Shown here piece by piece: positions 376 through 16,137 of a stretch of DNA of 16,137 nt. The position numbers were made by a program, and so were the translations under genes. The notes beneath the pieces are model-generated. The model ran no database searches. It had not been told where the DNA came from and saw only the letters and a list, made by a program, of their open reading frames with translations. Position 1 is the first letter of the stretch; each line of letters begins with the position of its first letter. The DNA comes from Candidatus Brocadiia bacterium (GTDB taxonomy: Bacteria; Planctomycetota; Brocadiia; SM23-32). The stretch is from NCBI GenBank assembly GCA_046538485.1, contig JBKHIT010000081.1:1-16137 (forward strand). Reading direction: 5' to 3'.

Positions 376-402
376 TTGACGAAACAAAACTCCACCTGTT
401 TC
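376..402 (-). promoter_or_regulatory. Mirror-image ECF-type promoter on the minus strand (GAAAC-N16-CGTCAA)
   Basis: The 9-bp inverted repeat gacgaaaca (378-386) / tgtttcgtc (397-405) makes the minus strand read gaaac-aggtggagttttgttt-cgtcaa. Confidence 0.45.
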
Positions 403-407
403 GTCTA
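381..407 (+). promoter_or_regulatory. ECF-type promoter (-35 GAAAC, 16-nt spacer, -10 CGTCTA), probably autoregulatory
   Basis: gaaac (381-385) + 16 nt + cgtcta (402-407) directly upstream of the ECF gene, matching the AAC-N16/17-CGT ECF consensus. Confidence 0.75.
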
Positions 408-412
408 AAGGG

Positions 413-982
413 GTGAAAATGGACAAAACTATCGGGTCCCGAACAGATCAGGCGCTGGTCGTGCTGTTCCAGAACGACGATGGCCAGCGACGTCGCGCGT
501 TCTGCGAACTCTACGAACGACATGCGGGAGCACTGCGCAATTACCTCCTGCGTCTGACCGGTGCTGTGCAGACGGCCGAGGACCTCACGCAGGAAACGTT
601 CCTCCGCGCATTGGAGGGACTGGAAAGTTTCACCGGACGTAGCTCGTTCAAAACGTGGCTCTTCACGATCGGCACAAATCTGGTTCGGGATCATTTTCGG
701 AGGAAAAAGCCCATGGGTTCCCTGGCCGACGATCTGACGTCATCACATCCGGATCCGGCCGAAAAAGCCGAAACCGACGATGACGTCCGCCGGTTGCGCT
801 CGGCGGTGGCCGATCTGCCGGAAAGCCAGCGTTTCCCTCTGGTGCTGGTGCGGTTCGAAGGGATGAAATACAGAGAAGCCGCTGAAGCGCTCGGTATCAC
901 GCTGGCGGCCGTTCGAATGCGTATCCACAGAGCACACCTTGCTCTCACCGAAGCGCTTACGGACCCGGGAGGAGAATTATGA
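413..982 (+). CDS. ECF-family RNA polymerase sigma-70 factor (SigW/RpoE-like)
   Basis: Region 2 motifs (AFCELYERH...AEDLTQETFLRA...SSFKTWLFTIGTNLVRDHFRR) and region 4 HTH (LPESQRFPLVLVRFEGMKYREAAEALGITLAAVRMRIHRAH). Start is either GTG 413 or ATG 419 (AAGGGG upstream). Confidence 0.95.
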   Translation: MKMDKTIGSRTDQALVVLFQNDDGQRRRAFCELYERHAGALRNYLLRLTGAVQTAEDLTQETFLRALEGLESFTGRSSFKTWLFTIGTNLVRDHFRRKKPMGSLADDLTSSHPDPAEKAETDDDVRRLRSAVADLPESQRFPLVLVRFEGMKYREAAEALGITLAAVRMRIHRAHLALTEALTDPGGEL

Positions 983-3900
983 ACAGAGAAAAAGCACGAG
1001 AATATGTCACCCATAAACTGGCCGGCGAACTGACGGACGAGGAGGCCAGCGAACTGGAGAAATTCCTCGAAGAGAATCCTGATTTCGCCCCGGAGGTGGA
1101 ACGGATGGAAAAAGTGTGGAAACAACTCGACCGGATTGAGTCTGAAAACATCGACGCTCCGCCGATGAGGGAAGAACTGAAGACCCGGCTCGGCGTTTCG
1201 GACGACAGCGACCCGAAACGCATGTGGTGGGCGTTCGCGGCCGCGGCAGCACTGATCATCGTCGGCGTGGTGCTGGGCTGGCCGCGAAACGGAGGCCCGG
1301 AAACCAACGGCGGAGGAGCTGCCACCGGCGGAAAAAGCACCGGCGAGAAGATGCGGGAAACTGCGCAATCAGCCGATCAAAGCAGATTGCCCCGTGTTCT
1401 GAAAGCCCGTGGATTGGTCATGACGCGCGGTCCCGAGGATACCCGATGGCGACTTCTGAGACGCGGCGACGAAATTCCGCTCGACCACACCGTGCGAATC
1501 GGCTCCAACCCGGAATTCGGCGTTATGTTGGTCTCGGACGACGGCACGCAGATTACCCTCGCCGCCGACAGCGAACTCAAGGTCAGCAAATCCACCATCT
1601 GGGACCTGAACTCCGGATCGGCCTGGGTCTCGGTCGGCGAAGGATTCGACCGCGCGGGATCCGGGGGAGGCGAGGAGGGAGAACTCCCGCCGAGAAGACT
1701 CCACCTCCGTACCCCGCACGGTTTGATCGCCCCGGCGGGCACGAAATACGCCGTTCGTGTGAGCGCCGATTACACCCTTTGCCGCGTGCGACACGGCGAG
1801 GTGGTGCTTTCCCCCCATAATCAGAGCACAACCGAACGCGTTGGAGAAGGCCAGGCCGGAATCATCGATAACACGGGCGTCCGGCTGCCAAAGACCGGAG
1901 GCGAGGAACTCGACGCGCTTCTGGCCCTGAAGACGCAGCTCGATACCAGCCAGGCCGTCGCCCGCCTTGTTGCCCGCAGCAAAGAGGAAGGGGAAAAACT
2001 TCCCCTTGAGATCAAATCCTACGATGTCAAAGTGGACGTTGTGGACGGTGTGGCGCGGACGTTTATCGATATGGTGTTTATTAACCAAACCCACAGCCGC
2101 ATGGAAGGCACGTTCTTCTACAACCTGCCTCCGGACGCAGTGATCAGCGAATTCGCGATGTATGTCGGCGAGAGACGGGTGGTGGGTGAGGTGCTCGAAC
2201 GGCATCGCGCGCGTCAGATCTTCGAGTACATCCGCCGCGAACGGCGCGATCCGGCCCTGCTTGAGTGGGTTGGCGGGAATTTGTTCAAAATGCGCGTCTA
2301 CCCGATCGAACCGCGCTCGACCAAACGCATCCAGCTCGGGTATACCCAGGTGCTCAAACGACGCGAGGGGAAAGTCAGCTATAATTTCCCGCTGGTCAGT
2401 GAGATGTTGAAGAAAAACCCTCTCCATAATTTCTCTTTCAATGCTCACATACTGTCGACGCCCGGTCTGTCGGACGTCGAATGTCCTTCCCACAGGGCTC
2501 AGATCGAGACGGGAGACGGCGGGAAACGGGCGTCGGTGCGTGTGGCGGCGAAAGATTACACTCCGAAACGCGATTTCCACATGAGCTGGCGGGTGCCCGA
2601 TAGCGCGGAGTGCATCGTGTTGAGCAACAGCCGACCGGACGAGCCAGAAGGGTATTTCATGGTGCAGATTGATCCGCGCGTCAGAGCCCACCAGCGCGAT
2701 GTGCCCGCAAGAATATTGCTGGTGCTGGACGGGTCGGCTTCGGTCGATTCGCGCGCTTTCAACATCGCCCGGGAATTCGCCAGGGCCACCTGTTCGATGG
2801 CGAACGGCTGGGAGATGAACGTCGTTCTCACAACCGCGCACGCCGACCCCCTCTGGGCGGATTTCCAGACCGTCGATTGGGATACGTATGCCGATGTCGA
2901 AGATTTCCTCTCCAGCCGCAAACCGCTTGGCGGCACCGATCTGCTGCAAAGTTTCAAGGGCGTGGCCGATTGCGTCGAGAAAGACGAGCCCGTGCGCGTG
3001 ATCTACGTGGGCGACGGAATTGATACGCTGGGGGGGCTGGAAGGAACGGCGCTTGTGGAGGCGATCAAGAAGGAGTTTGCGGGCAAGAATGCCGAGCTGA
3101 GCTGCGTGGCCGTCGGTTCGTCCTACGATCGAGAGGTGCTCAGCGGGCTCGCCGGGGCACTGGGCGGCACGTTCCGTGCCGTGCAGGGCGCCACGGACGT
3201 CTTCGATGCTGCGGATCGGGTCATCGCCGAACTCTACCGACCCGTCCTGCGAGACGTGAAAGTTGAGTTTGAAGGGGTCAAAGTCGGAGCCGTCTATCCT
3301 CGGCAAATCGGCACGCTGGCGGTCGGAGATACGGGGACGGTTCTGGGTCGGATTGTGGAAGGCCGGGCGGGTAAAATCTCCGTCAGCGGAACCTCGGGCG
3401 GTAAAGCTTTCACCCGCGAATACGATATCGAACTGGCGATGCCGGAGGAGAAGAACCAGTTTTTACCCCGTCTCTGGGCAAAAGCCCACATGGATGCTCT
3501 GCGGGCGCGGATGGGGCTCGGGACGAAAAGTCCCGATAGCTATCTGCGGGACCAGATCATCGCGGTATCGATCGACTATCAAATCATGTCGCCGTATACG
3601 GCCTTCCTGGTGCTGGAAAGCGAGGAAGATTACAAGAAATACGGCGTGGTGCGCCGTCTGCGGAAAGTCGACTGGCGAGGGGAGATGGAGGGTGTGAGCC
3701 ACCGCCGACCGGGCACTGAGGTGGAGAGCGGGAAACCCGAACGTCAGGCCCCGGCGGGCCCCGTGGTTCCGCTCCCCGAACCCGTGCCACAGTTTTTCAG
3801 TCCCGGCGACAGCATCATCGATGAAGACGAAACGTTAATACGCAAAAACCTGGAATATGGCGCCGGAGGGGGAGGGAAACTACCAGGAGGAGAGAGACGC

Positions 3901-6900
3901 CGACTGTGGAAAGAACGAGACGAAATCCGCCTGGAAGAAAGTGGAGAAGCTTTCAGTAATTTAGATCTCCTCACCAGCTGGGAGACGACGCTGGATGGGA
4001 ACGGTCGCCTGTACCGGGATATTCCGCTGGAGTCAAAAGAGAGTTGGGGGGGGGACGATTACGCCGAATGGTCCGGGGCGCAAAGCGGTTTCGGGCCCCC
4101 TGTTCGGTCTCGACTGAAGCCTGTGAGAAAACCAAAAGAGCTTTCGTTGAATGAACCGGTTGCGAGCGGGCCGGCGTACTGGTACGCCAGCGACCGGCTG
4201 GGAGCGTCCGAGGAACTTATGACGATGCACGAGATCTCGGACAAGGAGAGAAGAGTTTCGGGCTTCGGGTACTACCGGCGCCGCCGCAGGAAATGTTACG
4301 ATTATTTCCGGCGATACGGTATAAATCAGATCACGACGAAAGGCGACGAGAAACTGAAGGTGCGGCACTGGTACCGCGACGAATTGCACGCGCGCCGTGC
4401 GGTCATCATGAAACCGGAGAACCTGCAATACCGTCTCGACCTTGTGCTGGCCCTGGTCTGCTCCGGGGAGTACAGTTCAGCACTCAAGCATCTGGAGGGG
4501 CTGGAAAAGTCATTCGGACCGAACTTCCACCTGCTGCTGGAACGGGCCTGGATAGAGACTGAGATGGGCAACAGGACCGCCGCCGCCGAATCGCTGCAGC
4601 GGGCGGAGAAGACACTTGAGAATGTTCCGGAGGACAAGCGGGTTCGTTTCCGTCAGAATCTTGCGAGCCAGTTCCAGGGAATCGGGCAGCGCGACAGGGC
4701 GGTCGAAATATACCTGGATCTTGCCAAAAACGCCTCCTCTGCCAGCAGTGCCATCAATTCCTACTGCACGGCGTGGTCGTGTGCCAACTCGGCCCGGGAC
4801 ACGGCGGCTGATAAGATTCTGGAGAAGATGCTCGAACGGTACCCGAAGAATGGCTACGCTTACCGGCAGGCGGCTCAATATCTTCGTTCTTCGGATCCAG
4901 AACGTGCGCTTGAGCTCCTGGACAGAGCCAGGGAGCTGGGGCAGGACGTTACGGACCTTCGGATGCGTATCCTGTTCTCGAAGGGCGACACCGAGGCGGC
5001 ATGGGGGCTCCTGAGGACCATGTTTGACGAAGCAGAAAGTTCTGAGGAGGTCCGGCAGGCCCTTCAACAGGCGCGCAACTACAACCAGCGTCGCGCCTAC
5101 GCATGGTGCAGGGATGCCATACTGGCGTGGGAGGAACCTCAGCTGACCGGAGCCCTCCAGTACGCTCGATACAATTTCACCCCCGGCAGAGACGTTGTTA
5201 ACAAGATCCAGAAGATGGCGGAGAGCAGGGAACTGACCGACGACCACCGCGTTCCTGTGTTCAATATGCTTCACAGGTCGAGCACACGCCGCAGGGAATG
5301 GGCTAAAATCCTGGTCCCGCTTCTGAAGCCTGAGTTTCGCGATAAAGAAGCGCTACCCGAAATGACCGCCAGCCAGCGGGAGAGTATCGCGCAGCAACGT
5401 TCCCTGGCGTTCCAGGCACTGCAGCTTTTGATCAATCATGGCTACTACAAGCTGGCCGAAAAACACCTGGCAAAATTTCGGAACATTGAAGACCTGACGG
5501 AGTCAGAACGACACCAGCTGGCCAACGCGCGCTGGCAGGTCGAGAGGAATTCCGGGAACCGAGAGGAAGCTATCGAGCACCTGGAGGAAGCTTTCCGGGA
5601 AACAAAGAACGGCAGTTACGCTTACAACCACGCTTATCAGCTCATGAACGCTTTCATAGAGCACGGAGAGTATGAACGAGCGATCGGGACGGGGGCCGAG
5701 CAAATGAAGCGGTTCCCCGGCCACTACAATAATCGCTATCTCATTAATTCCCTCTACCAGCGTATCCGCAATATGCCGGAGTTGCTCGATAAGGCCCGGA
5801 AACTCATCGTACGGGGGACGAGTACGGACCAGGAACGAAGGGCTCAGCGCCAGCGAATCCTGGCGCTGGTCGGGAAAGGAAAGTTCGCCGAGGCGGACGC
5901 GGAACTGCGAAAGCTGCACGATAATCTGGAGAAGCAGCTGGAGGATCTCGGTCGCGAGGTGGACGAGCTGAAGAGCAAAATCGAGAAATTACAACAGAAT
6001 CGACCCGAAAAAACTGTTCAGCCTGATGGCGGGGGAGTGAAGAAAGAAACGTATCAGGAAACCATGCGTTCCCTGCAACCCAAAAGGCAAAAACTGGTGC
6101 AACGACGGGCGGAGTTGTTTCAGACGCTGGCGTGGACGCGCCGGCTTCGCGCGCAGGTCACGGCCCGTAAAGCGAAATTAAGGGAAGAGTTTCTGGCCGA
6201 ATGTCGGCGGCGGGCTGAAGATGAAGATCCCGTGGTGCGCGAATGGACGAACGCGGCCCTCTACTGTCTCCGGGCCGCCGGCAAGCCCCAGAAGCGTAAG
6301 GAAATGCTGGAAAAATTGCACGAGCTGGAATCAGACGACCCTATCTGGGGGCGGTTGCTGTTGAACGCGCGGATACATGCCGAGGAATTTCGAGAAGCGC
6401 TCAAGCTGGCGGAGAAACTCCGGGAAAGAGCGCCCGGCGACCTGGATCTCGCGCGAACCTGGTACAGCCTCGTCGGATCCGTCGGCGATTCGGAAAAGAT
6501 CGAGGCTGCCACGAACGAATTTATGGATGTTCTCCGGGCGCATCCCAATACTCTCAAACAAATGGCGCAACAGTGGCAAAACCAGAAGAGGTACAATCTG
6601 GCCATCCGCGCTTGGCTCGCCGTCCAGAAGACGCCCCATTACCGCGCGAACGGGAACCCCAGACTTCAGGCCGCCTCGATCCTCCACCAAACCGGAAAGA
6701 CGAAACGAGCCACGGAGTTGCTTTTGGATCTTATCGCGGATATCAGCGTCGCCTCTAACTCCAATTACCGGCAAAGCGCGGTGGGGAGACTGACTGACTA
6801 CATCCGGGACGAAGAAAGCCTGCGTTTGGTCGAGGATGAAGTGCCGGCGCTGCTCGAGGCGGAGGACCTGGAGGTCCGACGCTGGAGCATGTTGCTGGCG

Positions 6901-9048
6901 TACCGCGCGGCAAATGTGCGGAAAGAAACTGAAAAGGCCCAAAGGTTGCTCAACGGGATGTTTGCGCTGCCATCATCCTCGCGATATTCTACCGGATTTC
7001 CGACGACCATGGTGAATTTGTTGGTCGAGAAGGAGCGTTACAAAGAAGCGGTTTCTTACGCCCGGAAGGGAGCTGAAGGACTTTCCGCGCACAACCGGAT
7101 GGCCCTGCTCCGAAACACCGCCTCGCGACTTGCAAATTCTGACAAATCCAGGGATCTCGGCATTGAGCTGTATCGGGATCTGATCGAGCGGGGAAGTTCC
7201 AATGTGGAGAACGACCGGCGGAAGCTCATTGAATGCCTGACGGAAGCCGGAAGGACGGAGGAGGCCTGGGAAGAATTGGAGAAACTCGGGGTCAATAGCT
7301 CGGATTGGAACTACTGGCGGGGTTTCCGAAAGATTTTAGAGACGGAAAAGGACTTCGATAAGGCTATAACCCGGGCGATTGCCGCCTGGCGCCATCAACG
7401 GCAACTCCAGGGAAGCTACCGACACAGCATCTGGAACACTCTGACCGATCACGCCAGAAGTGCGATCGACAAGGACAAACTTTCCCCGGATACGCGCAAA
7501 CAGCTCAAGGAAGTGCTCATGCAGCACCTGCGCGATGTTCTGTCGGCGACACCGACGAGTTCCTATTCAGGGTATGAGATTCAACTCGCCCGGAAACTGA
7601 AGGTCGTGGATGAAGTTTTGAAATTGGCTGAAGAAGCGGCTGAAAGCAAAGAGCCGTGCCGTAAGCTCCGTGCCGCCACTTGTATCAAGCGATTCGATGA
7701 AAAGAACGGACACAAACGTGCCGCCGGGATCTGGCGTGACGTCCTGCAGCTGAAAACGACCACCCCGCAGCAGATCTCTTCTGCCTGCAGTTCGCTCTAC
7801 AGTTATTACCGGTATCCGAAGAAAGATTGGGCGGCGGCCATTGAGATGCTTGAGGTCTGGAAGGAAAGCGGGAACCTCAACGAACCGAGCTACCTTCAGA
7901 ACCGTGTGGAGTGTCTCTACAAGTTGAACCGGCGGAAAGAAGCCCGCGCCGCCGCTGAAAAACTGTTGCAGCGGCCGGAAGTGCGGCAAAACTACTCGGG
8001 CTATCTCGGCAACCTCGCCTCATATTGCCAGAATGCCAGAGATCATACGATGGAAGTGAAGGTTCGGAAACTGCAGCTTCAGGTGCTTTTCTTGCAGAGC
8101 CGCCGGCGCAACCGGTCTCTGGATGCCGGTTCCGCCGCCCAGGTCTATAGAGCTCTGGCCCAGGCCTACGCGGGACAGGGAAAGATCGAAGAGGCCGTGG
8201 AGTCGTGCGTGCGCGGGCTCCAGATTGTGAACCGGAATCAGCACTCGTGGTATTACACGCGTCTGCGTCGGAGCCTGATTGAGATCTTGAAAGGCGGGGT
8301 CGATGGAGGTGTCGATGCGGCTGTCAGATTTTACGAGGAAAAACTCCTGCCCGAGGGTGAGATCCCACAGTTGCGAGTTGCTTTTGGGATGGCATACCGT
8401 GAGGCGAACAAAGAAGAAAAAGCGCTCGAACAGCTCTCGATTGCCGCCGAACTGTTGCCGAAAGATACCAAACTCCGCAGGATGGTCATACAGGGCTATA
8501 AGAATCTGGACAACCCCGATGAGGTGGAGAAAGCCTACCTTGCCTGGGCGCGTCTGGATCCGCAGAATATCCAGATATACCGCGAGTTGGGGCAGCTTTA
8601 TGAGAGTCAGAACCGGCCCGATGATGCCATGAAGGCCTATGCCACCATGGCCGAGGTCCGCCCCCGCGAGGCCGAAGGACACCGGGCCTACGGGCGCATT
8701 CTTGCCGACAAGGGCGAACTTGAGGAGGCTATCGTCCAGTACGTTACCGCCCGGAAATACCGTCCCACCGCGTTCGATATTGCTCGTGAGCTGGCGGAAC
8801 TCTACCGTCGGGCCGATCGCGTGCAGCAGATTGATGAGCTCTGGGAAGATGGGGAAAAAGCCTGCCGGAGCGCGATGGAAGACCTGCCCGACGACCCGCT
8901 TCCGTGGCTCGCACTGGCGCGTTTTCTAAAAGCCCAGGGGCGGGAAGACGAAGCGCGGGAACAATGCCACCGAATTTTGCGTCGCCACTGGCCGCGTTTC
9001 GGCGGCGAGACCCGCTCCGAGGCCCGCCAGATCCTGCAAACACTCTGA
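979..9048 (+). CDS. Giant membrane-anchored anti-sigma-like protein: ASD + TM + FecR-like + VIT + vWA + TPR repeats (2689 aa)
   Basis: ATGA overlap with the sigma stop and GGAGGAG RBS. N-terminal anti-sigma-like segment (YVTHKLAGELTDEEASELEKFL), TM aa82-101 (nt 1222-1281), FecR-like nt ~1390-1870 (DGTQITLAADSEL, LNSGSAWV, LRTPHG..GTKYAV, VRHGEV), VIT nt ~2000-2355 (RMEGTFFYNLPPDAVISEFAM, RRDPALLEWVGGNLFKMRVYPIEP), vWA nt ~2715-3240 (LVLDGSAS, GGTDL, YVGDG), then LPRLWA/SPYTAFLVLE motifs and TPR-like repeats from ~4390 to the end. Confidence 0.9.
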   Translation: MNREKAREYVTHKLAGELTDEEASELEKFLEENPDFAPEVERMEKVWKQLDRIESENIDAPPMREELKTRLGVSDDSDPKRMWWAFAAAAALIIVGVVLGWPRNGGPETNGGGAATGGKSTGEKMRETAQSADQSRLPRVLKARGLVMTRGPEDTRWRLLRRGDEIPLDHTVRIGSNPEFGVMLVSDDGTQITLAADSELKVSKSTIWDLNSGSAWVSVGEGFDRAGSGGGEEGELPPRRLHLRTPHGLIAPAGTKYAVRVSADYTLCRVRHGEVVLSPHNQSTTERVGEGQAGIIDNTGVRLPKTGGEELDALLALKTQLDTSQAVARLVARSKEEGEKLPLEIKSYDVKVDVVDGVARTFIDMVFINQTHSRMEGTFFYNLPPDAVISEFAMYVGERRVVGEVLERHRARQIFEYIRRERRDPALLEWVGGNLFKMRVYPIEPRSTKRIQLGYTQVLKRREGKVSYNFPLVSEMLKKNPLHNFSFNAHILSTPGLSDVECPSHRAQIETGDGGKRASVRVAAKDYTPKRDFHMSWRVPDSAECIVLSNSRPDEPEGYFMVQIDPRVRAHQRDVPARILLVLDGSASVDSRAFNIAREFARATCSMANGWEMNVVLTTAHADPLWADFQTVDWDTYADVEDFLSSRKPLGGTDLLQSFKGVADCVEKDEPVRVIYVGDGIDTLGGLEGTALVEAIKKEFAGKNAELSCVAVGSSYDREVLSGLAGALGGTFRAVQGATDVFDAADRVIAELYRPVLRDVKVEFEGVKVGAVYPRQIGTLAVGDTGTVLGRIVEGRAGKISVSGTSGGKAFTREYDIELAMPEEKNQFLPRLWAKAHMDALRARMGLGTKSPDSYLRDQIIAVSIDYQIMSPYTAFLVLESEEDYKKYGVVRRLRKVDWRGEMEGVSHRRPGTEVESGKPERQAPAGPVVPLPEPVPQFFSPGDSIIDEDETLIRKNLEYGAGGGGKLPGGERRRLWKERDEIRLEESGEAFSNLDLLTSWETTLDGNGRLYRDIPLESKESWGGDDYAEWSGAQSGFGPPVRSRLKPVRKPKELSLNEPVASGPAYWYASDRLGASEELMTMHEISDKERRVSGFGYYRRRRRKCYDYFRRYGINQITTKGDEKLKVRHWYRDELHARRAVIMKPENLQYRLDLVLALVCSGEYSSALKHLEGLEKSFGPNFHLLLERAWIETEMGNRTAAAESLQRAEKTLENVPEDKRVRFRQNLASQFQGIGQRDRAVEIYLDLAKNASSASSAINSYCTAWSCANSARDTAADKILEKMLERYPKNGYAYRQAAQYLRSSDPERALELLDRARELGQDVTDLRMRILFSKGDTEAAWGLLRTMFDEAESSEEVRQALQQARNYNQRRAYAWCRDAILAWEEPQLTGALQYARYNFTPGRDVVNKIQKMAESRELTDDHRVPVFNMLHRSSTRRREWAKILVPLLKPEFRDKEALPEMTASQRESIAQQRSLAFQALQLLINHGYYKLAEKHLAKFRNIEDLTESERHQLANARWQVERNSGNREEAIEHLEEAFRETKNGSYAYNHAYQLMNAFIEHGEYERAIGTGAEQMKRFPGHYNNRYLINSLYQRIRNMPELLDKARKLIVRGTSTDQERRAQRQRILALVGKGKFAEADAELRKLHDNLEKQLEDLGREVDELKSKIEKLQQNRPEKTVQPDGGGVKKETYQETMRSLQPKRQKLVQRRAELFQTLAWTRRLRAQVTARKAKLREEFLAECRRRAEDEDPVVREWTNAALYCLRAAGKPQKRKEMLEKLHELESDDPIWGRLLLNARIHAEEFREALKLAEKLRERAPGDLDLARTWYSLVGSVGDSEKIEAATNEFMDVLRAHPNTLKQMAQQWQNQKRYNLAIRAWLAVQKTPHYRANGNPRLQAASILHQTGKTKRATELLLDLIADISVASNSNYRQSAVGRLTDYIRDEESLRLVEDEVPALLEAEDLEVRRWSMLLAYRAANVRKETEKAQRLLNGMFALPSSSRYSTGFPTTMVNLLVEKERYKEAVSYARKGAEGLSAHNRMALLRNTASRLANSDKSRDLGIELYRDLIERGSSNVENDRRKLIECLTEAGRTEEAWEELEKLGVNSSDWNYWRGFRKILETEKDFDKAITRAIAAWRHQRQLQGSYRHSIWNTLTDHARSAIDKDKLSPDTRKQLKEVLMQHLRDVLSATPTSSYSGYEIQLARKLKVVDEVLKLAEEAAESKEPCRKLRAATCIKRFDEKNGHKRAAGIWRDVLQLKTTTPQQISSACSSLYSYYRYPKKDWAAAIEMLEVWKESGNLNEPSYLQNRVECLYKLNRRKEARAAAEKLLQRPEVRQNYSGYLGNLASYCQNARDHTMEVKVRKLQLQVLFLQSRRRNRSLDAGSAAQVYRALAQAYAGQGKIEEAVESCVRGLQIVNRNQHSWYYTRLRRSLIEILKGGVDGGVDAAVRFYEEKLLPEGEIPQLRVAFGMAYREANKEEKALEQLSIAAELLPKDTKLRRMVIQGYKNLDNPDEVEKAYLAWARLDPQNIQIYRELGQLYESQNRPDDAMKAYATMAEVRPREAEGHRAYGRILADKGELEEAIVQYVTARKYRPTAFDIARELAELYRRADRVQQIDELWEDGEKACRSAMEDLPDDPLPWLALARFLKAQGREDEAREQCHRILRRHWPRFGGETRSEARQILQTL

Positions 9049-9235: not shown

Positions 9236-9309
9236 GGTTAACGTTGAAGTGAACTGTCAGCCCGCATCGCTGAGGCGGGAGCCATTTGCGTTGATTGGAA
9301 CTGTTAGCT
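9236..9309. other. Possible degenerate integron attC-like site
   Basis: ggttAAC...GTTagct ends 74 nt apart with a central cccgc-N9-gcggg stem. The L boxes pair poorly and there is no integrase in the window. Confidence 0.3.
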
Positions 9310-9558
9310 GCGCAGCAGTTTGCGAATAGGGCAAAAACTATTTACCCCAAAAACGTGCTCTCGGCGGCGCTGAGGACTGTGTGGGAGCGCAGCACGAGAA
9401 CCCCGAACTCCGGCGGCTGACGGTGCCTTCGCACGAGGCTGCACTCTGAGGCACTCTTTCGGAGTGCGCAACAGCCCCTGAAAAGACTTACTACGAACCC
9501 GACGATGACTTCGAAGCTTGCGATCACTCTGGAACGTGCAATTCACTGAGAGGTGGTT

Positions 9559-9581
9559 GTAGTGGACCGCTTCAGCGGTCC
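9559..9581 (+). repeat. GTAG-type REP-like hairpin
   Basis: GTAG-t-ggaccgc-ttca-gcggtcc: a perfect 7-bp stem preceded by the GTAG tetranucleotide. Confidence 0.6.
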
Positions 9582-9812
9582 GTTGCGTCGGAACACACGC
9601 CAAGCCCAGGATAAAAAGCGCAACGACACAGCCGTGAGTAAAACGTCCCGTCGGTCCGTTTTAACACACCGCAATCCACAGCGCGCCGCTGGCGCGCGGG
9701 GCATCACACGGGCCGGTCCCGCCGAGATTCCGGGGTTCCGGAAGATGTTGGCTGCCGGGGGATGCAACAACAATCATCTCCTGTCCGAACCCCGCCGGCG
9801 TCAGCCGGCTAT

Positions 9813-9838
9813 GGAGTGCGGCGATTTTTCGCCGCTTT
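9813..9838 (+). repeat. REP-like hairpin GGAGTGCGGCGA-TTTT-TCGCCGCTTT (may also act as terminator)
   Basis: Perfect 7-bp stem (9818-9824/9829-9835) followed by T-rich sequence. Confidence 0.55.
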
Positions 9839-9902
9839 GTCGTTGTCTTTCGTCGTTTTGTGGTGGGCCTTCAGCCCACTTTTTTTCCCAATGCATACCT
9901 GT

Positions 9903-9968
9903 ACCCAGGGCTCCGAGGGCCTGCGGCCCCCGTCACCCCGGGCTGTTATATACTGCCCTTTCAGGGCA
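9903..9968. repeat. REP-like element of the CCCAGGG...CCCGGGCT...GCCCTTTCAGGGC type
   Basis: acccaggg...ccccgggct outer arms, gggcc-tgc-ggccc inner stem, and tgccct-ttc-agggca terminal hairpin. Confidence 0.55.
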
Positions 9969-10092
9969 ATGAACGGCAGGGCGCGCTCGGCGATAACCCC
10001 TTGCATCTGCGTGGCATCCCGGATACGTGGAGCCCCGGTGGGTTCTGGGAGATCTGTGGGCTGATGAGCCGCGTTCTGAACTCCAGCCTCCG

Positions 10093-10196
10093 GCTGAAGT
10101 CCAGTCCGCGAGGCGTTGGTCCGTTCAGTATGACGGGCATCTTACCTGTCAACGGTTCAGTTCCGCGGGACTTCAGCGTTCCCAGGATAGGGAACG
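10093..10196. repeat. Long nested imperfect hairpin plus adjacent hairpin
   Basis: gctgaagtcc (10093-10102) / ggacttcagc (10168-10177) is a perfect 10-bp pair. Inner pairs are ccgtt/aacgg and tgacggg/cctgtca (10131-10151). It is followed by cgttccc-aggata-gggaacg. Confidence 0.55.
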
Positions 10197-10382: not shown

Positions 10383-11117
10383 ATGATAGACCACGGCTGT
10401 TTCAAAAGGGAAAACTATCTCATGGAACCTGAACGCAGGCTTTATGGCTGGGATGATGGCAAGGTGTATTTTTTGATCGATGAAGAGCAGCGGGTGTGTG
10501 TTACCGATAATGGACCGTTGCTGCAGAAACTGGTTTTGATCTGCGAAGAGCACTACATGGAACATCCGCCTGGAGATCGAGTGGCTGACGAGCAATCCTT
10601 CGAGCCCGAAATGCCGGGAGAAGTGACCTCCTCCCAGGGCGTGACGTATGATCTGGAAGAAATAGCCTCTTGCATGTTCGATCTGGAAGAGGGTGGCGAA
10701 ATGATCGGGTTGTTGAATTTAGAAAATGGGCTGATTGTGCGCCATATGCCGCCGGATCTTGTCGGTGAAATCGACTACCCCGGATTCACGGACGAGGAAA
10801 AACAGCGTCTGCACCAAACCGGGGCTTTGCCCGAGGGCTGGGAATATATCGAGCAGGGACCGTCGCAGAAAAGCTGGAGATTTATGGAAAAATTTGCCCG
10901 CACAATTGAAAATCCTGTCCCCCGCGATCGTTTGTTAAATGCCATTCAGGGGGGAGGGGCTTTTCGTCGTTTTCGCGACATTACGAATTCTGATAAGAGA
11001 ATGCGTGAGCGCTGGTTTGCCTTCAGGGAAGATTGCCGGCGCCGCGCAGCACTGACGCAACTGGTCTTCGTGTATGAAATCGATTTTCCGGAAGAGGTTC
11101 AAAAACTGCTCCAGTAA
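10383..11117 (+). CDS. UPF0158-family protein with N-terminal extension
   Basis: C-terminal motif SWRFMEKFARTIENPVPRDRLLNAIQGGGAFRRFRD...RERWFAFRE is typical of UPF0158. Alternative start is ATG 10422. Confidence 0.8.
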   Translation: MIDHGCFKRENYLMEPERRLYGWDDGKVYFLIDEEQRVCVTDNGPLLQKLVLICEEHYMEHPPGDRVADEQSFEPEMPGEVTSSQGVTYDLEEIASCMFDLEEGGEMIGLLNLENGLIVRHMPPDLVGEIDYPGFTDEEKQRLHQTGALPEGWEYIEQGPSQKSWRFMEKFARTIENPVPRDRLLNAIQGGGAFRRFRDITNSDKRMRERWFAFREDCRRRAALTQLVFVYEIDFPEEVQKLLQ

Positions 11118-11375: not shown

Positions 11376-14300
11376 TTATTCGACGGAGACGAGGCTGAAA
11401 TCTTCGGGGCGGGTGGGCAGAACCAGCACGTTTTCGCCTTCCACTTTTGGTTTTTGTGCCTTTTTCTCTTTTTCTTCCCTTTCTTCGGGGGTTTCGTCTT
11501 TGAAGAGATCGTCTACGTTTTTTTCGCCGAGTCCCAATCCGTCCTCGTCCGTGACTTCTCCTTCCATTAGATCTTGCTTAATTTCTTTTCGTCGTTTCTT
11601 AACTTCCTCATTGCTCAGGAAATCTTTTCCTTCTCTGGGGGGATAGCTCCTATCGTAGCGTTTGACTGAGATATCCTCGGGGAGCCCGAGCGCCTTGAGG
11701 TCAAGTTTCACGCGGATATTTTTCGGTTCCTGCGTGCGGTTCGAAGCGATGAGCAGGATCCGTCCGTCGTCTTTGTAGAAAGACACGAGCACCTCATCGC
11801 GCATCCCATCGACCTGCAGGTAGGGTTCGGTGTTCCAGTAGGGGATGAACGGTACCTCCCGGGGGTCCATAGCTCCCCACTCGATGACGTCGCGCCAGTA
11901 TTTGTTGAATACTCCGCTCGTTTCGCAGAAGGGGACGAAACATTCGAGATGGGCGAGCACCGAATTGCAGCCCCGCGCCATCCGCCATGCCCATCTCTTG
12001 TGGGAAGTTTCTTTGCCATGCTCCCAGATGCAGGCGTACCACGCCGGTGTTATGCCCCAGAGCCGGGCATTCTGAAGGGTTTCGACCCGTTGAAGCGGCA
12101 CCGACCGCACAAAACCCCGTGCTCGATGTCCGCCGATCATCCCGCCTCTGCCTTCCCCGTGCAGGTAGGAATCGGCGAAAACTAAATGAGAGTAATGGAA
12201 GCTGTGGATCACCGAACAGTGCGTGACGTACGCGGGTCCCTCGTCGTACTGGTGAGATATATTTCGGGAACGTTTGGTGAAAGCCCGTTTTCCCCAATAC
12301 GGTTCGCCGGGCTGGACTTTGCCGTTCGGGAACCGCACGGCCAGTCCCGCCTTAACATTATTCAGGCGGTCGGTGTAATCCTCGTCGGCATACCAGCCCT
12401 GATAGCAGCCGCGCTTGGCCCACTGATTCCATTCCCAGCAAAGGTGGTCGACCAGGTCGGGGGTGAAGGTCGGGTGTTTGGAGTACATCTCCCAGTAATC
12501 GGGCCCACCGCCCCGGAATCCCATGAACCACCAGCCGTGATACATGATCAGGCTCCCGAAGACCCCGACCTTATCCTTGGCCTCGCGCGCTTTTTCGGCC
12601 AGGTCATAGTTGCCTTTTATCGGCCAGACGCGATGCCCGTGCCCGCGGTCCTCCAGGGGCCAGGTCATGAATGTCGTCCCGTAGACCGAGCAATAGTCCG
12701 GACTTTCATGACGGTTGGCGCGGTCCATAAGCCGGTGATGATCCGCAAACGGGCGCGCGGGATGGGGAAGAACCCCGAAAACAATCGGGCGCACATGGGG
12801 TTCGAGATTCCGTTCAGCTTTTTTCACGCGGGGAATCGGCGGCGCCCAACGCGGGCCGATGTGCTTGCTGAGCAGTTTCTCACGCTTCACCGGTTCGGCG
12901 ATCAGGTTCAGGCGAATCAGCACCTCATCGCCTTTCTTCTCGATCCTCTGGGCCGGTCTTGTGTCGGATTGCCACCAGCCAATTGCGTTATCGGCAAACC
13001 AGTAAAGTCCCCGGTTGAGATCGTGGACATCGAGCGTATTGGTGAACGCGTAGCCGCGAAATTCCTCCAGAGCTGGGACCTCGAGCTTCCTCCGACGGCG
13101 GGCTCTGTGCTTCAGCTTCTGCCAGGCGTAGACGCGGGTATCGAAGACTATACCGTCTTTGTCGGGCACAACGCCGGTGCGTGCGCCACGGGCGCGAGCC
13201 ATGTTCTGCATGTAGCGTTTTGCCCGCTCGCTGTTCAGCGGGAAGACGAGCCTGAGGGGGGCAACGGTGTCCTTTTTCGGTTGCGGCAACAGCGTCCATT
13301 TGACGCACCCGTCGTAATCGCAGTCCCAGCGGACGTACACGTCGCAAGTGTTGCCCCGGAAAGTGGTCTCCCACACGGCGGCGGTGGGACTGGATTCGAC
13401 CCGCTTGAACCGGTCCGCTTTCATGGGGTGCCCGCTTTCCTCCAGATAGGCCGGGCGTGAGAGCAGATTCTTGTCGCTGGTGATAATTGTTTTCGGGAGG
13501 CCATTTTTTCCCAGCACATATTCTGTCATGCGCGTTTTGACGCGGCGATTCTCAAACTTGATGGGTGTCCACGGCGGAGGCGGAGAATCGAGAACGCCGG
13601 CGGTCTCACTGTACATAGGCGGCGGCGTGACATCGACTTTGGCTTTCCCGTCAACCACCTGCTGTCCCTGGACGTCGGTTATTTTGATGCGGGCGGTGTA
13701 ATCGGCCTGTGGGAACTGCCTTCCAGCCTTGAAATTGAATTCAGCCTCGCCCGAGGTGATGTCCTTCTCAGTGGGCTTGAACAGAACATCGCCCTCGGGG
13801 GTCAGGACCGATACTATGGCCCGGCCGGGCTTCAGGCCCGGCGGGAATTTGGTGGTCACTTTCACGTCCAGTTCGCCAATTCGCCACCTGGGGCTGCTTT
13901 TGATCGAGAAGAACTTGAGCGGGCCGGCGTCTTTTTTCCATCTCACGTGCGCATGGCGGATCTCTCGTTCGTGGAGAGCGTAGTTGTAGGCCGCCATTTC
14001 ATCAATATCGATTTGTGGTGGGTGACCGTGTTTGACCAGGACTTTGTCTGTGATCCCGACTTCCATCGTCTTCAATTCCAGGTCCTGCGCACCGTCGGCC
14101 AGATGGACCTTGCCTTTCCATTCCTCTCCGTTGATATACGCGGCGGCCTGTCCTTTTTCCCAGAGGACAACAACGTGGAACCAGTCGTTGGGGTGGATAA
14201 ACGGTTCCCGCACCATGCGCCCCCGGGGGAAATGCATCGTCAGGAAAAGCTTCTTTTCTTTTTTGCTCTTTCTGGTTCCGTAGAACCTGATGGCGTTGAG

Positions 14301-15779
14301 CAGGGGACGAAAGTGAGAGAGCTTCCCCGTTTTTCGGCTTCTTCTCACACGGGTGGCGTTGTCGAAATTGACCGGTCGGAACCAGAACTCGACGCTTCCT
14401 TCCTCGGGGCTCATTCCCTCCAGACTGAACCGGGGCAAGGCCGTGCAGGGCTCGATCCGCCAGCCCTGTCCCCGCACTCCCGGGACGGTCAGGCGTTCGA
14501 AATCGGCGCCGGCATTGAAATCGACTTTGTCGGTCCCGCCGCGGTGGAAATCGTACTTGCGGGTTTTCCCCAGCGGAGCGTGGAAAAGGGCGCCGTTGCG
14601 GAAGAAATGCGGTTTGCCGAAAGAGACCGTCCTCTGGCTCTCAAGGTCGCGCCATTCCTGAGAGGGGGTGGGGTAATAATCTATGTCGCCGTTGGTGGCC
14701 ATTACATCGTCGATCAGGCCCTCAAAGCCCTGATCGCCCTCGAGGCTATTGCCGATGATGACGGTGCCGGGAGCTACAGAATACTGCACCCCCCTGGGGG
14801 TCAGAAAGGAGTCCTGTTTGACGTTGTTGATGGCCAGTTCGGCCCGGTAGCAGCCGGGTCCCTGGACGACAGGGCTATTGTTGTAAATCCTGATCCAGAT
14901 CCATTCTCCGGTTGGGACGGGTTTCTTGGAGGTAATGTGTGAAGGCGGGGTGCTCAGGTAGTGTTTCATCGCCTCTTTCTTGCCCGTCATCGACTGCCAC
15001 CGGGGGTGGCCGTGACGGTGCCGCAGACGGAGTTCCACCTTCCCGTCCGGATGCAGCAGCAGCTTGGCGGCCGGTGTTCGTTCGTCCATCTCCTTAAGAT
15101 CGCTCGTGGCTATCGAGTGAAGGATGCAGACGGTTTCTTCCGGGTAATCGTCCACCTTAACCCAGGCGGAGACGCCCGCGTGCTCCATTTTGGACTTGAA
15201 TTCGAAGGGATAATCTTCGGGCGGTCGGGCGTTGAGGCCCTCGCAGACGATGCCTCCCTCGCCGCTGCATCTCAATCCCGACCCAAACTTGCCCTGCTCT
15301 GTGATCGATACTCCGTCGCCAAGGGTGAAGACCCGGCGGTGCCAGCTGTAGTCCTGGATCTGGTCCGGACCCAATTTGGACCGGTCAAGCGGCTTGGGTT
15401 TCCAGTTCTGCTTTTTTTCGGCGTGGGTGGCGGCTATCTCCGGCATGTCGAGCCCCGCGTCCTCGGTCCCCGCATCGAGCGTTGCGCTTATCTCACGCCC
15501 CGTATCTTCGACCTCTTTGGTTTGTTCCCAGTTTTTGATCTGTTCTTTGACGCGCTCGCTGACTCCCCGACGGGTGACGCCGAAATGGAGCAGCAGATAC
15601 ACCCTTTCGGAGGCCACGCCTTCTTCATTTTGCCAGGAGTAGCGGTAGTTGTAATCAGGTTTTTCGCCGGCTTTGCCCGAGTGCGCCAGGACCGGCAATA
15701 GTAGCGCCACCAGCAGGAAAGTGCGGGAATAACCTGTCAAGGAACGGAAGACATCCATTGGCAGAAGCGTGTGGTCCAT
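11376..15779 (-). CDS. Large secreted carbohydrate-active-like protein: signal peptide + two LamG/ConA-like jellyrolls + GH123/DUF6067-like region
   Basis: Signal-peptide-like RTFLLVALLLPVLAHS. LamG motifs: GKFGSGL..VSAWVK..IGNS..FEGLIDDV and GVRGQG..EGSVEFWFRP..WFHVVVLW..YING..IDEMAAYNYAL. Downstream motifs PPPWTP, DYDG, GLYWFAD, GWYADE and FIPYW. Start moved from 15995 to ATG 15779 (alt 15758) because the signal peptide begins there and a sigma70-like promoter lies inside the extension. Confidence 0.75.
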   Translation of the reverse strand: MDHTLLPMDVFRSLTGYSRTFLLVALLLPVLAHSGKAGEKPDYNYRYSWQNEEGVASERVYLLLHFGVTRRGVSERVKEQIKNWEQTKEVEDTGREISATLDAGTEDAGLDMPEIAATHAEKKQNWKPKPLDRSKLGPDQIQDYSWHRRVFTLGDGVSITEQGKFGSGLRCSGEGGIVCEGLNARPPEDYPFEFKSKMEHAGVSAWVKVDDYPEETVCILHSIATSDLKEMDERTPAAKLLLHPDGKVELRLRHRHGHPRWQSMTGKKEAMKHYLSTPPSHITSKKPVPTGEWIWIRIYNNSPVVQGPGCYRAELAINNVKQDSFLTPRGVQYSVAPGTVIIGNSLEGDQGFEGLIDDVMATNGDIDYYPTPSQEWRDLESQRTVSFGKPHFFRNGALFHAPLGKTRKYDFHRGGTDKVDFNAGADFERLTVPGVRGQGWRIEPCTALPRFSLEGMSPEEGSVEFWFRPVNFDNATRVRRSRKTGKLSHFRPLLNAIRFYGTRKSKKEKKLFLTMHFPRGRMVREPFIHPNDWFHVVVLWEKGQAAAYINGEEWKGKVHLADGAQDLELKTMEVGITDKVLVKHGHPPQIDIDEMAAYNYALHEREIRHAHVRWKKDAGPLKFFSIKSSPRWRIGELDVKVTTKFPPGLKPGRAIVSVLTPEGDVLFKPTEKDITSGEAEFNFKAGRQFPQADYTARIKITDVQGQQVVDGKAKVDVTPPPMYSETAGVLDSPPPPWTPIKFENRRVKTRMTEYVLGKNGLPKTIITSDKNLLSRPAYLEESGHPMKADRFKRVESSPTAAVWETTFRGNTCDVYVRWDCDYDGCVKWTLLPQPKKDTVAPLRLVFPLNSERAKRYMQNMARARGARTGVVPDKDGIVFDTRVYAWQKLKHRARRRRKLEVPALEEFRGYAFTNTLDVHDLNRGLYWFADNAIGWWQSDTRPAQRIEKKGDEVLIRLNLIAEPVKREKLLSKHIGPRWAPPIPRVKKAERNLEPHVRPIVFGVLPHPARPFADHHRLMDRANRHESPDYCSVYGTTFMTWPLEDRGHGHRVWPIKGNYDLAEKAREAKDKVGVFGSLIMYHGWWFMGFRGGGPDYWEMYSKHPTFTPDLVDHLCWEWNQWAKRGCYQGWYADEDYTDRLNNVKAGLAVRFPNGKVQPGEPYWGKRAFTKRSRNISHQYDEGPAYVTHCSVIHSFHYSHLVFADSYLHGEGRGGMIGGHRARGFVRSVPLQRVETLQNARLWGITPAWYACIWEHGKETSHKRWAWRMARGCNSVLAHLECFVPFCETSGVFNKYWRDVIEWGAMDPREVPFIPYWNTEPYLQVDGMRDEVLVSFYKDDGRILLIASNRTQEPKNIRVKLDLKALGLPEDISVKRYDRSYPPREGKDFLSNEEVKKRRKEIKQDLMEGEVTDEDGLGLGEKNVDDLFKDETPEEREEKEKKAQKPKVEGENVLVLPTRPEDFSLVSVE

Positions 15780-15841
15780 AAACGTCTCTTTCAGATGTGA
15801 GGAGCTCCTGTACCGAATATTCAAACTCCCAGGAACGCTAC

Positions 15842-15854
15842 ATACAGTCTGTAT
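15842..15854. promoter_or_regulatory. Palindromic operator-like site ATACAG-T-CTGTAT overlapping -10/+1
   Basis: Perfect 6-bp inverted repeat at the predicted transcription start region. Confidence 0.35.
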
Positions 15855-15883
15855 TGTACCGTTTTTGGGCATTATTCTGTCAA
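15853..15883 (-). promoter_or_regulatory. Sigma70-like promoter TTGACA-N19-TACAAT for the LamG/GH gene
   Basis: The minus strand reads ttgaca gaataatgcccaaaaacgg tacaat, about 75 nt upstream of ATG 15779. The spacer is long (19 nt). Confidence 0.55.
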
Positions 15884-16000
15884 GTGGTTGAAATCTGCGA
15901 GGGATTTGCGGGGAAGGTCGTGTCGTTGTTTCAGAGCCGGGGAACTGCTTGAGATTGCATCCGAGTCCTGAATGGAGCGGGACCGGAAACGCCACACCTG

Positions 16001-16025
16001 TATCATAGCCTGCATCTTACGGATG
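16001..16025 (-). repeat. Copy 2 of CATCCGTAAGATGCAGG motif
   Basis: cctgcatcttacggatg at 16009-16025, inverted relative to copy 1. Confidence 0.8.
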
Positions 16026-16137
16026 TACGCGTTTAGCGTGACGAGTGCCGTTCCAAAAAAGGCCCGTAGGGCCGGAGCAGACGTAGAACCAATGGTGGAG
16101 CCCACCAGAACTGAGGAAGCCCACAGACAGGTCATGC

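Follow-up and report, generated by a model that had tools for sequence, protein, structure and literature searches.

The 16,137-nucleotide contig JBKHIT010000081.1 of a Candidatus Brocadiia bacterium (hereafter the window, taken at its full length; it is the whole of contig C61 in a 5.19-Mb genome, G000, that is 88% complete) carries a gene for a sigma factor of the extracytoplasmic function (ECF) type that overlaps, at an ATGA, the gene of a giant protein of 2689 amino acids (aa). Open reading frames (ORFs) and Pfam bear out this arrangement, which a first-pass annotation had read as an ECF gene joined to a FecR/VIT/vWA/TPR protein (coordinates in Table 1). The two products almost certainly form a class I sigma/anti-sigma pair. 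As to function, we give an even chance to the idea that the pair alone, acting across the membrane, warns the planctomycete of proteases attacking its envelope. The named relatives of the window proteins are Planctomycetota, and matching DNA is seen in microbial mat and salt lake metagenomes.

The sigma factor contains the Pfam domains Sigma70_r2 and Sigma70_r4_2, matches the NCBIfam ECF family TIGR02937, and consists of sigma2 and sigma4 only (with VRMRIHR as the helix of sigma4). At E ≤ 1e-30, 30 proteins are found, itself counted; NCBIfam assigns no ECF group, all equivalog scores being under the cut-off. In a model of aa 1–325 of the giant protein, the region before the membrane forms four helices (3–14, 20–32, 34–55, and 61–71), and it has weak NCBIfam anti-sigma matches (E of 3e-5 and 2e-4, under cut-off). 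The HxxxCxxC motif of the zinc anti-sigma (ZAS) subclass is absent from aa 1–81; among homologues, zf-HC2 occurs in six of 44 N-termini scanned. The modeling of the sigma factor against the N-terminal domain, as had been proposed, gives for aa 1–78 a score of 0.73 (best control 0.01), with at least 93% of the contacts agreeing between runs and a partner pLDDT (predicted local distance difference test) of at least 85. In that complex, the N-terminal helical domain touches both sigma2 and sigma4 (sigma residues 25–65 and 122–181). The pass mark is reached by 116 of 157 solved pairs and by two of 215 mismatched pairs. The pairing rests on this model and on the position of the homologues with such an N-terminus, all 33 of which sit behind an ECF gene. 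Hydropathy gives a lone hydrophobic segment from aa 82 (19-residue mean of 2.22; next best elsewhere 1.32) and the model agrees, as expected for the single membrane helix of the first reading.

The ectodomain resembles the heavy chains of inter-alpha-trypsin inhibitor (ITIH). Pfam finds all three parts that had been read there, the VIT domain (vault protein inter-alpha-trypsin; 345–455, E 1e-24), the von Willebrand factor A (vWA) domain (VWA_3, 578–732), and the tetratricopeptide repeats (TPRs). The AlphaFold model of aa 133–905 (pLDDT 87; predicted template modeling score, pTM, 0.83) is closest to ITIH1 (6fpy; Foldseek E 3e-32; Z 28.2, root-mean-square deviation 6.7, 518 aligned). The metal site presumed from the DxSxS of the vWA domain is intact, with all five residues of a complete MIDAS (an adhesion site that depends on a metal ion). 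The DPHF motif, which we take to be a mark of ITIH chains, does not occur in the giant protein. After the module comes a linker with the lowest conservation of the ectodomain (0.06–0.18) and a length of 148–379 aa among 19 homologues; it is a candidate protease-susceptible bait region. The best stretches of the Pfam TPR families lie within aa 1509–2668; aa 1690–1900 are TPR-like with a recognition value under the Atlas threshold, and the final 240 aa are the best-conserved part in the conservation profile. With Pfam at E ≤ 0.1, there is neither DUF3520 nor CHAT in the giant protein, nor a match to PF13385 (Laminin_G_3). As far as the cited sections go, ITIH4 inhibits proteases in the manner of a bait: it is cut within a variable region, holds the protease, and needs its MIDAS for this (PMC7793589).

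Between the membrane helix and the VIT domain, Pfam places FecR at aa 184–275 (E 4e-5). The best Foldseek match of the aa 1–325 model is 6ovk_R (E 5e-8), and the profile matches only residues 7–146, out of 219, of PupR 6ovk (E 1e-11). The FecR-like domain of the first reading thus stands as to Pfam match and PupR-like fold, with only its juxtamembrane half present; the VIT domain follows directly in the model, and PF16344 (FecR_C) and PF07660 (STN), of the C-terminal half, are not found on the window contig. In E. coli FecR, according to the portion of the source used, losing the fragment distal to the Gly–Thr cut leads to constitutive signaling, and activation is by force on that fragment (PMC12036975). 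The genome has a gene for an RseP-like M50 protease.

The following mechanism can be proposed. The N-terminal domain would keep the co-translated ECF inactive, as synteny and the complex model suggest. The FecR juxtamembrane domain would cut itself at Gly254–Thr255, a motif seen in the sequence, and the parts, as in E. coli FecR, would remain associated and shield the membrane helix. The distal part, in the architecture found, is the ITIH-like VIT–vWA module with the variable linker and the TPRs, which would replace the STN subdomain pulled by a transducer. A foreign or runaway protease would cut the linker and be caught via the MIDAS, as in ITIH4; the capture would loosen or remove the distal part, and site-2 proteolysis, possibly by the RseP-like protease, would release the sigma factor. 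The latter would transcribe its own operon and, from the motif, probably share a GRAAC-N16/17-CGTCYA regulon of exported VIT–vWA, vWA, alpha-2-macroglobulin, and serpin genes. By analogy with FecR and DdvA, the sigma factor is probably freed by proteolytic release. That protease attack is the signal, as ITIH4 and the regulon suggest, is evenly balanced. The first-pass annotation had considered damage to the envelope, contact with other cells, and attack by proteases; the promoter class and a sister macroglobulin anti-sigma (see below) favor the last as the putative signal.

By its sequence, the operon belongs to the GAAAC-N16-CGTCTA promoter class, which we take to be of the SigW/sigmaE type, in contrast to the iron-uptake genes of FecI–FecR-like systems. 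The window contains two matches at up to one mismatch, where chance alone would give 0.23 on average. The predicted start site near 413 would give a leaderless or nearly leaderless mRNA. Positions 376–407 form a near-palindrome, so that a second site, GAAAC-N16-CGTCAA, occurs on the minus strand. The same motif precedes the orthologous ECF of locus L044, and near-identical variants those of L023 and L030. The strict pattern was fixed from the window prior to looking at other loci, and a looser pattern was counted alongside. Stand-alone VIT–vWA genes have the motif upstream in 10 of 19 cases (strict) or 15 of 19 (loose) and exported giants in 13 of 25 (loose; one strict), against a background of 25 strict and 194 loose in 5058 windows; with the reversed pattern, there are no strict and 0–2 loose matches. 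For alpha-2-macroglobulin genes, the motif is found in 12 of 16 (loose; three strict; four of 20 loci skipped) and, for serpin genes, in seven of 25 (loose; two strict; two of 27 skipped), with a background of 44 in 798 windows; these loci were fetched afterwards from kin genomes, each set including the window genome's own copy. A gene behind the motif on contig C75, which resembles the N-terminus of a macroglobulin by eye but is a 536-aa fragment without a Pfam match, was not counted as a macroglobulin.

A promoter matrix trained on 26 sites, all from other genomes, ranks among the non-coding sites of the window genome a 777-aa VIT–vWA gene first, an exported vWA gene second (with three relatives only, the motif present in two), a 2152-aa thioester macroglobulin fourth, and the window promoter sixth, with unrelated sites between and below. 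The strict genome scan alone is noisy (41 matches vs. 25 expected, most of them intragenic). In eight other genomes, 30 exact sites occur, several intragenic; the 21 downstream proteins scanned include a serpin, two VIT, one vWA, and two DUF4139 proteins, and also MoxR, four sigma, kinase, and propeller proteins. The window's sigma factor probably autoregulates and overlaps with this regulon. Three loci of the genome may be recorded here: the best-scoring site, with a VIT–vWA gene behind it and an ARPP-1 (PF20208) gene next in line (G000:C48:45255-48906, L104); a same-strand row that comprises a thioester macroglobulin gene, one sulfatase-like gene, and a pair of serpin genes (G000:C43:67637-79083, L110); and a 2692-aa TPR–macroglobulin without thioester motif (G000:C40:4092-16384, L107), divergent from a VIT–vWA gene with an internal TAA stop and from an exported vWA gene.

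On contig C134 of the same genome (G000:C134:90041-95852, L108), an ECF gene precedes the gene of a 1725-aa protein in which zf-HC2 and a membrane helix are joined to a full macroglobulin, thioester motif included. Proteins of the macroglobulin family inhibit proteases by a bait-and-trap mechanism. Among the 120 macroglobulin homologues listed, zf-HC2 is found in 19 and HxxxCxxC in 20, all 20 keeping GCxEQ; the zinc-anti-sigma/macroglobulin fusion is a family of its own, and the literature search gave no description of zinc anti-sigmas joined to a thioester alpha-2-macroglobulin. The bait reading of the window's pair is preferred mainly because two trap-like families are fused to anti-sigma domains in one genome, and because the shared promoter class is rich in protease inhibitors.

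A search with aa 130–910 returns 118 proteins of 1478–4706 aa, the query counted, with a close group of 19 of shared architecture. Scanned with the giant protein alone, the genome contigs give only two distant loci; aa 133–905 are matched (E ≤ 1e-60) in 109 of 401 genomes of the phylum, many via short VIT–vWA proteins. A 64-member Atlas cluster of FecR–VIT–vWA proteins is mostly from Myxococcota. From 60 genome regions picked for long open frames and 21 metagenome loci (four duplicates dropped), a set of 66 long proteins was obtained, the window's included: 33 lie right behind an ECF gene, 26 have none, two are fused to a sigma factor via the membrane helix, and five are cut at the 5′ end. The complete genome G082 has one such pair. 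Since these groups were first labeled by ECF adjacency, the N-termini were tested separately. In each of the 33 ECF-linked forms, the frame is open for 66 aa or more before the helix, and this domain matches others of the same group at E < 1e-3. The 26 exported forms show no match to the anti-sigma-type N-termini; in 16 of them, the frame is closed by a stop no more than 50 codons from the hydrophobic helix, and the others, on reading, begin like signal sequences (for L066, the upstream DNA is too short for a judgment). The synteny predicted between ECF genes and such proteins is therefore found for all anti-sigma-type N-termini, whereas 26 of the 66 homologues are exported with neither the anti-sigma domain nor an ECF.

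On the tree of the VIT–vWA core (a quick, unrooted tree from which no direction of change is claimed), the forms interleave, with at least six changes forced by the starred branches. The partner sigmas are 19–55% identical to the window's and scattered among the genome's other ECFs. Exported forms, interleaving, and divergent partners indicate that the ectodomain works without a sigma factor and is paired with different sigma/anti-sigma modules; because it is so often exported without anti-sigma domain and ECF, it is probably a working effector recruited as a sensor. The MIDAS is complete in 24 of the 33 anti-sigma forms and in all 26 exported ones. Read from the aligned column, Gly–Thr is present in 15 of the 33 and in one of the 26, and missing throughout a 41-member clade, whatever the form. 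There are also sigma-fused versions in P0081, P0091, and P0094. At L055:2893-11790 and L082:2800-11742 (G354), an ECF sigma is joined via a membrane helix to a giant FecR-like–VIT–vWA–TPR ectodomain; the fused sigma is membrane-tethered and could therefore act only after release. At L089:3877-13840 and L102:423-8941, the VIT–vWA and TPR parts are in separate open frames (split genes or frameshifts), and the precomputed domains of P0050, P0085, and P0106 include STN, Secretin_N, or TonB_C besides VIT.

The frequency of exported forms bears also on a general envelope-integrity feedback, which we consider rather improbable. The giant protein would then serve a sigmaE/SigW-like regulon chiefly as an exported scaffold or repair factor; through the anti-sigma fusion, it would signal that it is itself misfolded, occupied, or turned over, whatever the envelope stress and not for protease attack in particular. 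Homologues exported without sigma, more than half of those tallied being behind the same promoter class, the interleaving on the tree, and the DUF4139, MoxR, and PQQ-propeller (pyrroloquinoline quinone) genes of the regulon would fit such a feedback. Against this, those regulon members that are identified best belong to the protease traps or resemble ITIH, and the macroglobulin of the sister anti-sigma has its thioester motif intact.

It is likewise rather unlikely that the pair is an integrin-like contact or ligand sensor, in which MIDAS and TPRs would bind a protein on a neighbor cell, predator, or phage, the binding or pull parting the self-cleaved FecR halves with the linker uncut. For this, one can invoke the complete MIDAS, the description of ITIH1 as integrin-like (in the part of PMC7170535 relied on), the response of FecR to force on its distal fragment, and the proposal, in the cited passages of PMC11506125, that the TPR-bearing anti-sigma DdvA senses a phage protein. 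Yet no conserved downstream or neighbor genes are evident in 48 loci (layouts compared by ORF length only), PADLOC gives zero matches, and the promoter class points to protease inhibitors.

A distant TonB-dependent transducer that would drive the pair, as in classical cell-surface signaling for iron or glycan uptake, is very unlikely: the FecR juxtamembrane fold and Gly–Thr motif are present, but PupR needs both juxtamembrane and STN subdomains for transducer binding, as the cited part of PMC7186176 has it, and the STN half is absent here. Moreover, the window lacks a TonB-dependent receptor and a PF00593 barrel is not found in the 88%-complete genome, where the sole STN match is a 434-aa protein without a barrel match, in line with the independence from a transducer that had been supposed. 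Finally, an assembly chimera or chance fusion can practically be dismissed: no single contig of a second study spans the whole gene, but 19 proteins have the same architecture, five of them end to end in other genomes (P0003–P0007, aligning from the N-terminus through the last TPR block), and independent contigs bridge the junctions. In run X1, a single contig spans 283–9426 with zero differences (X1 may be the source); the contigs of the second study cover 794–1748, 1719–3994, and 4345–7960 with 21, 32, and 81 other letters and bridge the anti-sigma–FecR and FecR–VIT–vWA–linker junctions. The chimera check of the first-pass annotation thus speaks for a real 2689-aa gene.

Several observations weigh against a protease alarm centered on the window's sigma factor. 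The score of the complex may reflect likeness to solved sigma/anti-sigma pairs, because such pairs are among the solved structures. Because the linker is distal to the ITIH module, cutting it does not alone expose the membrane helix, and the reading requires one more change of conformation. In the bait reading, the signal is predicted only, and a cytoplasmic bacterial VIT–vWA protein is tied to radiation survival, not to proteases (bioRxiv 10.64898/2026.05.23.727404, in the portion consulted here). The MIDAS is degenerate in nine of the 33 anti-sigma forms, and Gly–Thr is absent in 18. Only six of 30 partner ECFs have the motif (loose; four strict, including the window's), which, with the low identity of the partner sigmas, indicates an output that varies from one lineage to another. 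General envelope stress would fit the presence of DUF4139, MoxR, kinase, and beta-propeller genes behind the motif. No close orthologue of the window's sigma is found in 40 relatives (best E 4e-44), though the motif occurs there. In seven of 18 loci, AAC-N16/17-CGTCTA stands upstream of the gene for a family-wide SigW/sigmaE-like ECF that is paired with a zinc anti-sigma, and this ECF, rather than the window's sigma, is the likelier master of the regulon; it likely runs the GGAAC-N16/17-CGTCTA regulon of macroglobulin, VIT–vWA, vWA, serpin, DUF4139, and MoxR genes. In the window genome, its promoter reads GGACC and that of a third ECF GATCA, both with CGTCTA. The SigW/sigmaE-like ECF is found at G000:C23:35019-36950 (L109) and in L151, L153-L156, L158-L160, L162, L163, L165, and L167.

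The nearest known systems are FecI–FecR, PupI–PupR, and FoxI–FoxR which, in the sections cited (PMC12036975, PMC7186176), likewise have an ECF followed by an anti-sigma domain, one membrane helix, a juxtamembrane all-beta subdomain, and a Gly–Thr motif; the window's pair has neither STN nor transducer and, instead, a 2370-aa ITIH-like/linker/TPR region. From what the cited part of the ECF reclassification describes (PMC7826278), ECF46 offers a precedent for FecR joined to a sensor of its own (FecR with Laminin_G_3, in Planctomycetes and Verrucomicrobia, the same phyla), but with a lectin-like sensor in place of VIT–vWA–TPR and of a type not matched in the 2689 aa. Putative anti-sigmas with vWA or TPR also occur in ECF289 and ECF226 (vWA and DUF3520) and ECF267 (FecR and TPR); in those descriptions, none joins FecR, VIT, vWA, and TPR, and among the FecR–LamG, vWA–DUF3520, and FecR–TPR anti-sigmas listed neither VIT nor macroglobulin is found (PMC7826278). 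The DdvA of Myxococcus DdvS–DdvA, in the passages cited, is also a large anti-sigma that crosses the membrane once, has its TPRs in the periplasm, depends on RseP for release, and serves defense; unlike the giant protein, it combines a zinc domain with a CHAT protease module, and the genes under its control are those of CBASS and CRISPR (PMC11506125). With human ITIH1 (6fpy) and ITIH4, as described in the sections used (PMC7793589), the fold, the complete MIDAS, and a variable region after the module are shared, at 17–18% identity; the giant protein is membrane-tethered and fused to FecR and TPRs, and its protease inhibition is predicted only. No anti-sigma with VIT or macroglobulin domains was found in a literature search made without the survey of 79 planctomycetes (30 further ECF groups), which may list the architecture; nor did it give a paper linking VIT with a sigma factor, or VIT and FecR with sigma.

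Around the operon, a scan for sigma-70 promoters and terminators 3′ of the giant gene gives nothing above chance. Multi-copy non-coding elements flank it at 117–311, 9279–9570, 9615–10110, and 16020–16086 (47, 49, 304, and 24 BLAST matches in the genome, in that order, as four query stretches, with high depth) and are probably REP-like (repetitive extragenic palindromic) or MITE-like (miniature inverted-repeat transposable element). Neither the LamG and GH123-like glycoside hydrolase gene at 11376–15995 (−) nor the UPF0158 gene at 10383–11117 (+) shows a sign of belonging to the system.

Table 1. Features of the sigma/anti-sigma operon in the window (aa numbering of the giant protein)
Feature	Position	Strand	Remarks
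ECF-type promoter GAAAC-N16-CGTCTA	381..407	+	exact match upstream of operon
ECF sigma ORF	413..982	+	189 aa, GTG start; ATG at 419
Giant anti-sigma ORF	979..9048	+	2689 aa; overlaps ECF ORF at ATGA
Class I anti-sigma domain, cytoplasmic	979..1212	+	aa 1–78, four helices, no zinc motif
Transmembrane helix, single	1222..1278	+	aa 82–100; hydropathy; helix 82–99 in model
FecR/PupR juxtamembrane all-beta subdomain	1393..1947	+	aa 139–323, STN subdomain missing
Gly254–Thr255 FecR-type self-cleavage motif (predicted)	1738..1743	+	in 15/19 closest homologues, including the giant protein
ITIH heavy-chain-like VIT–vWA module	1966..3648	+	aa 330–890
MIDAS DxSxS	2728..2742	+	D584, S586, S588; completed by T653 and D679
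Hypervariable linker	3676..4383	+	aa 900–1135, ~235 aa, between vWA module and TPRs
TPR/helical solenoid	4384..9048	+	about 1550 aa

To our knowledge, bacterial VIT–vWA proteins are widespread and almost uncharacterized, and most planctomycete ECF systems are without a known signal. The present locus ties a VIT–vWA protein to a defined signaling route and a predicted promoter, and its function is therefore testable by a reporter and a panel of proteases. The promoter class joining macroglobulin, serpin, and VIT–vWA genes is useful even if the window's sigma is not its master. If the bait reading is true, the inhibitory mechanism reported as new for human ITIH4 would be matched in bacteria by one that serves as a receptor, the self-cleaving module of FecR would be a latch of general use, independent of TonB, and an inducible anti-protease defense regulon would exist in bacteria. 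Tentatively, and with somewhat less than an even chance, planctomycetes, and probably myxobacteria too, may have repeatedly turned homologues of plasma traps (ITIH-type VIT–vWA proteins and thioester alpha-2-macroglobulins) into anti-sigma-fused receptors that induce an anti-protease arsenal. The trap itself would then be the sensor, its cutting leading to release of the ECF and to exported macroglobulins, serpins, and VIT/vWA proteins; this would be a bacterial counterpart of the acute-phase response and a first function for exported bacterial VIT–vWA proteins.

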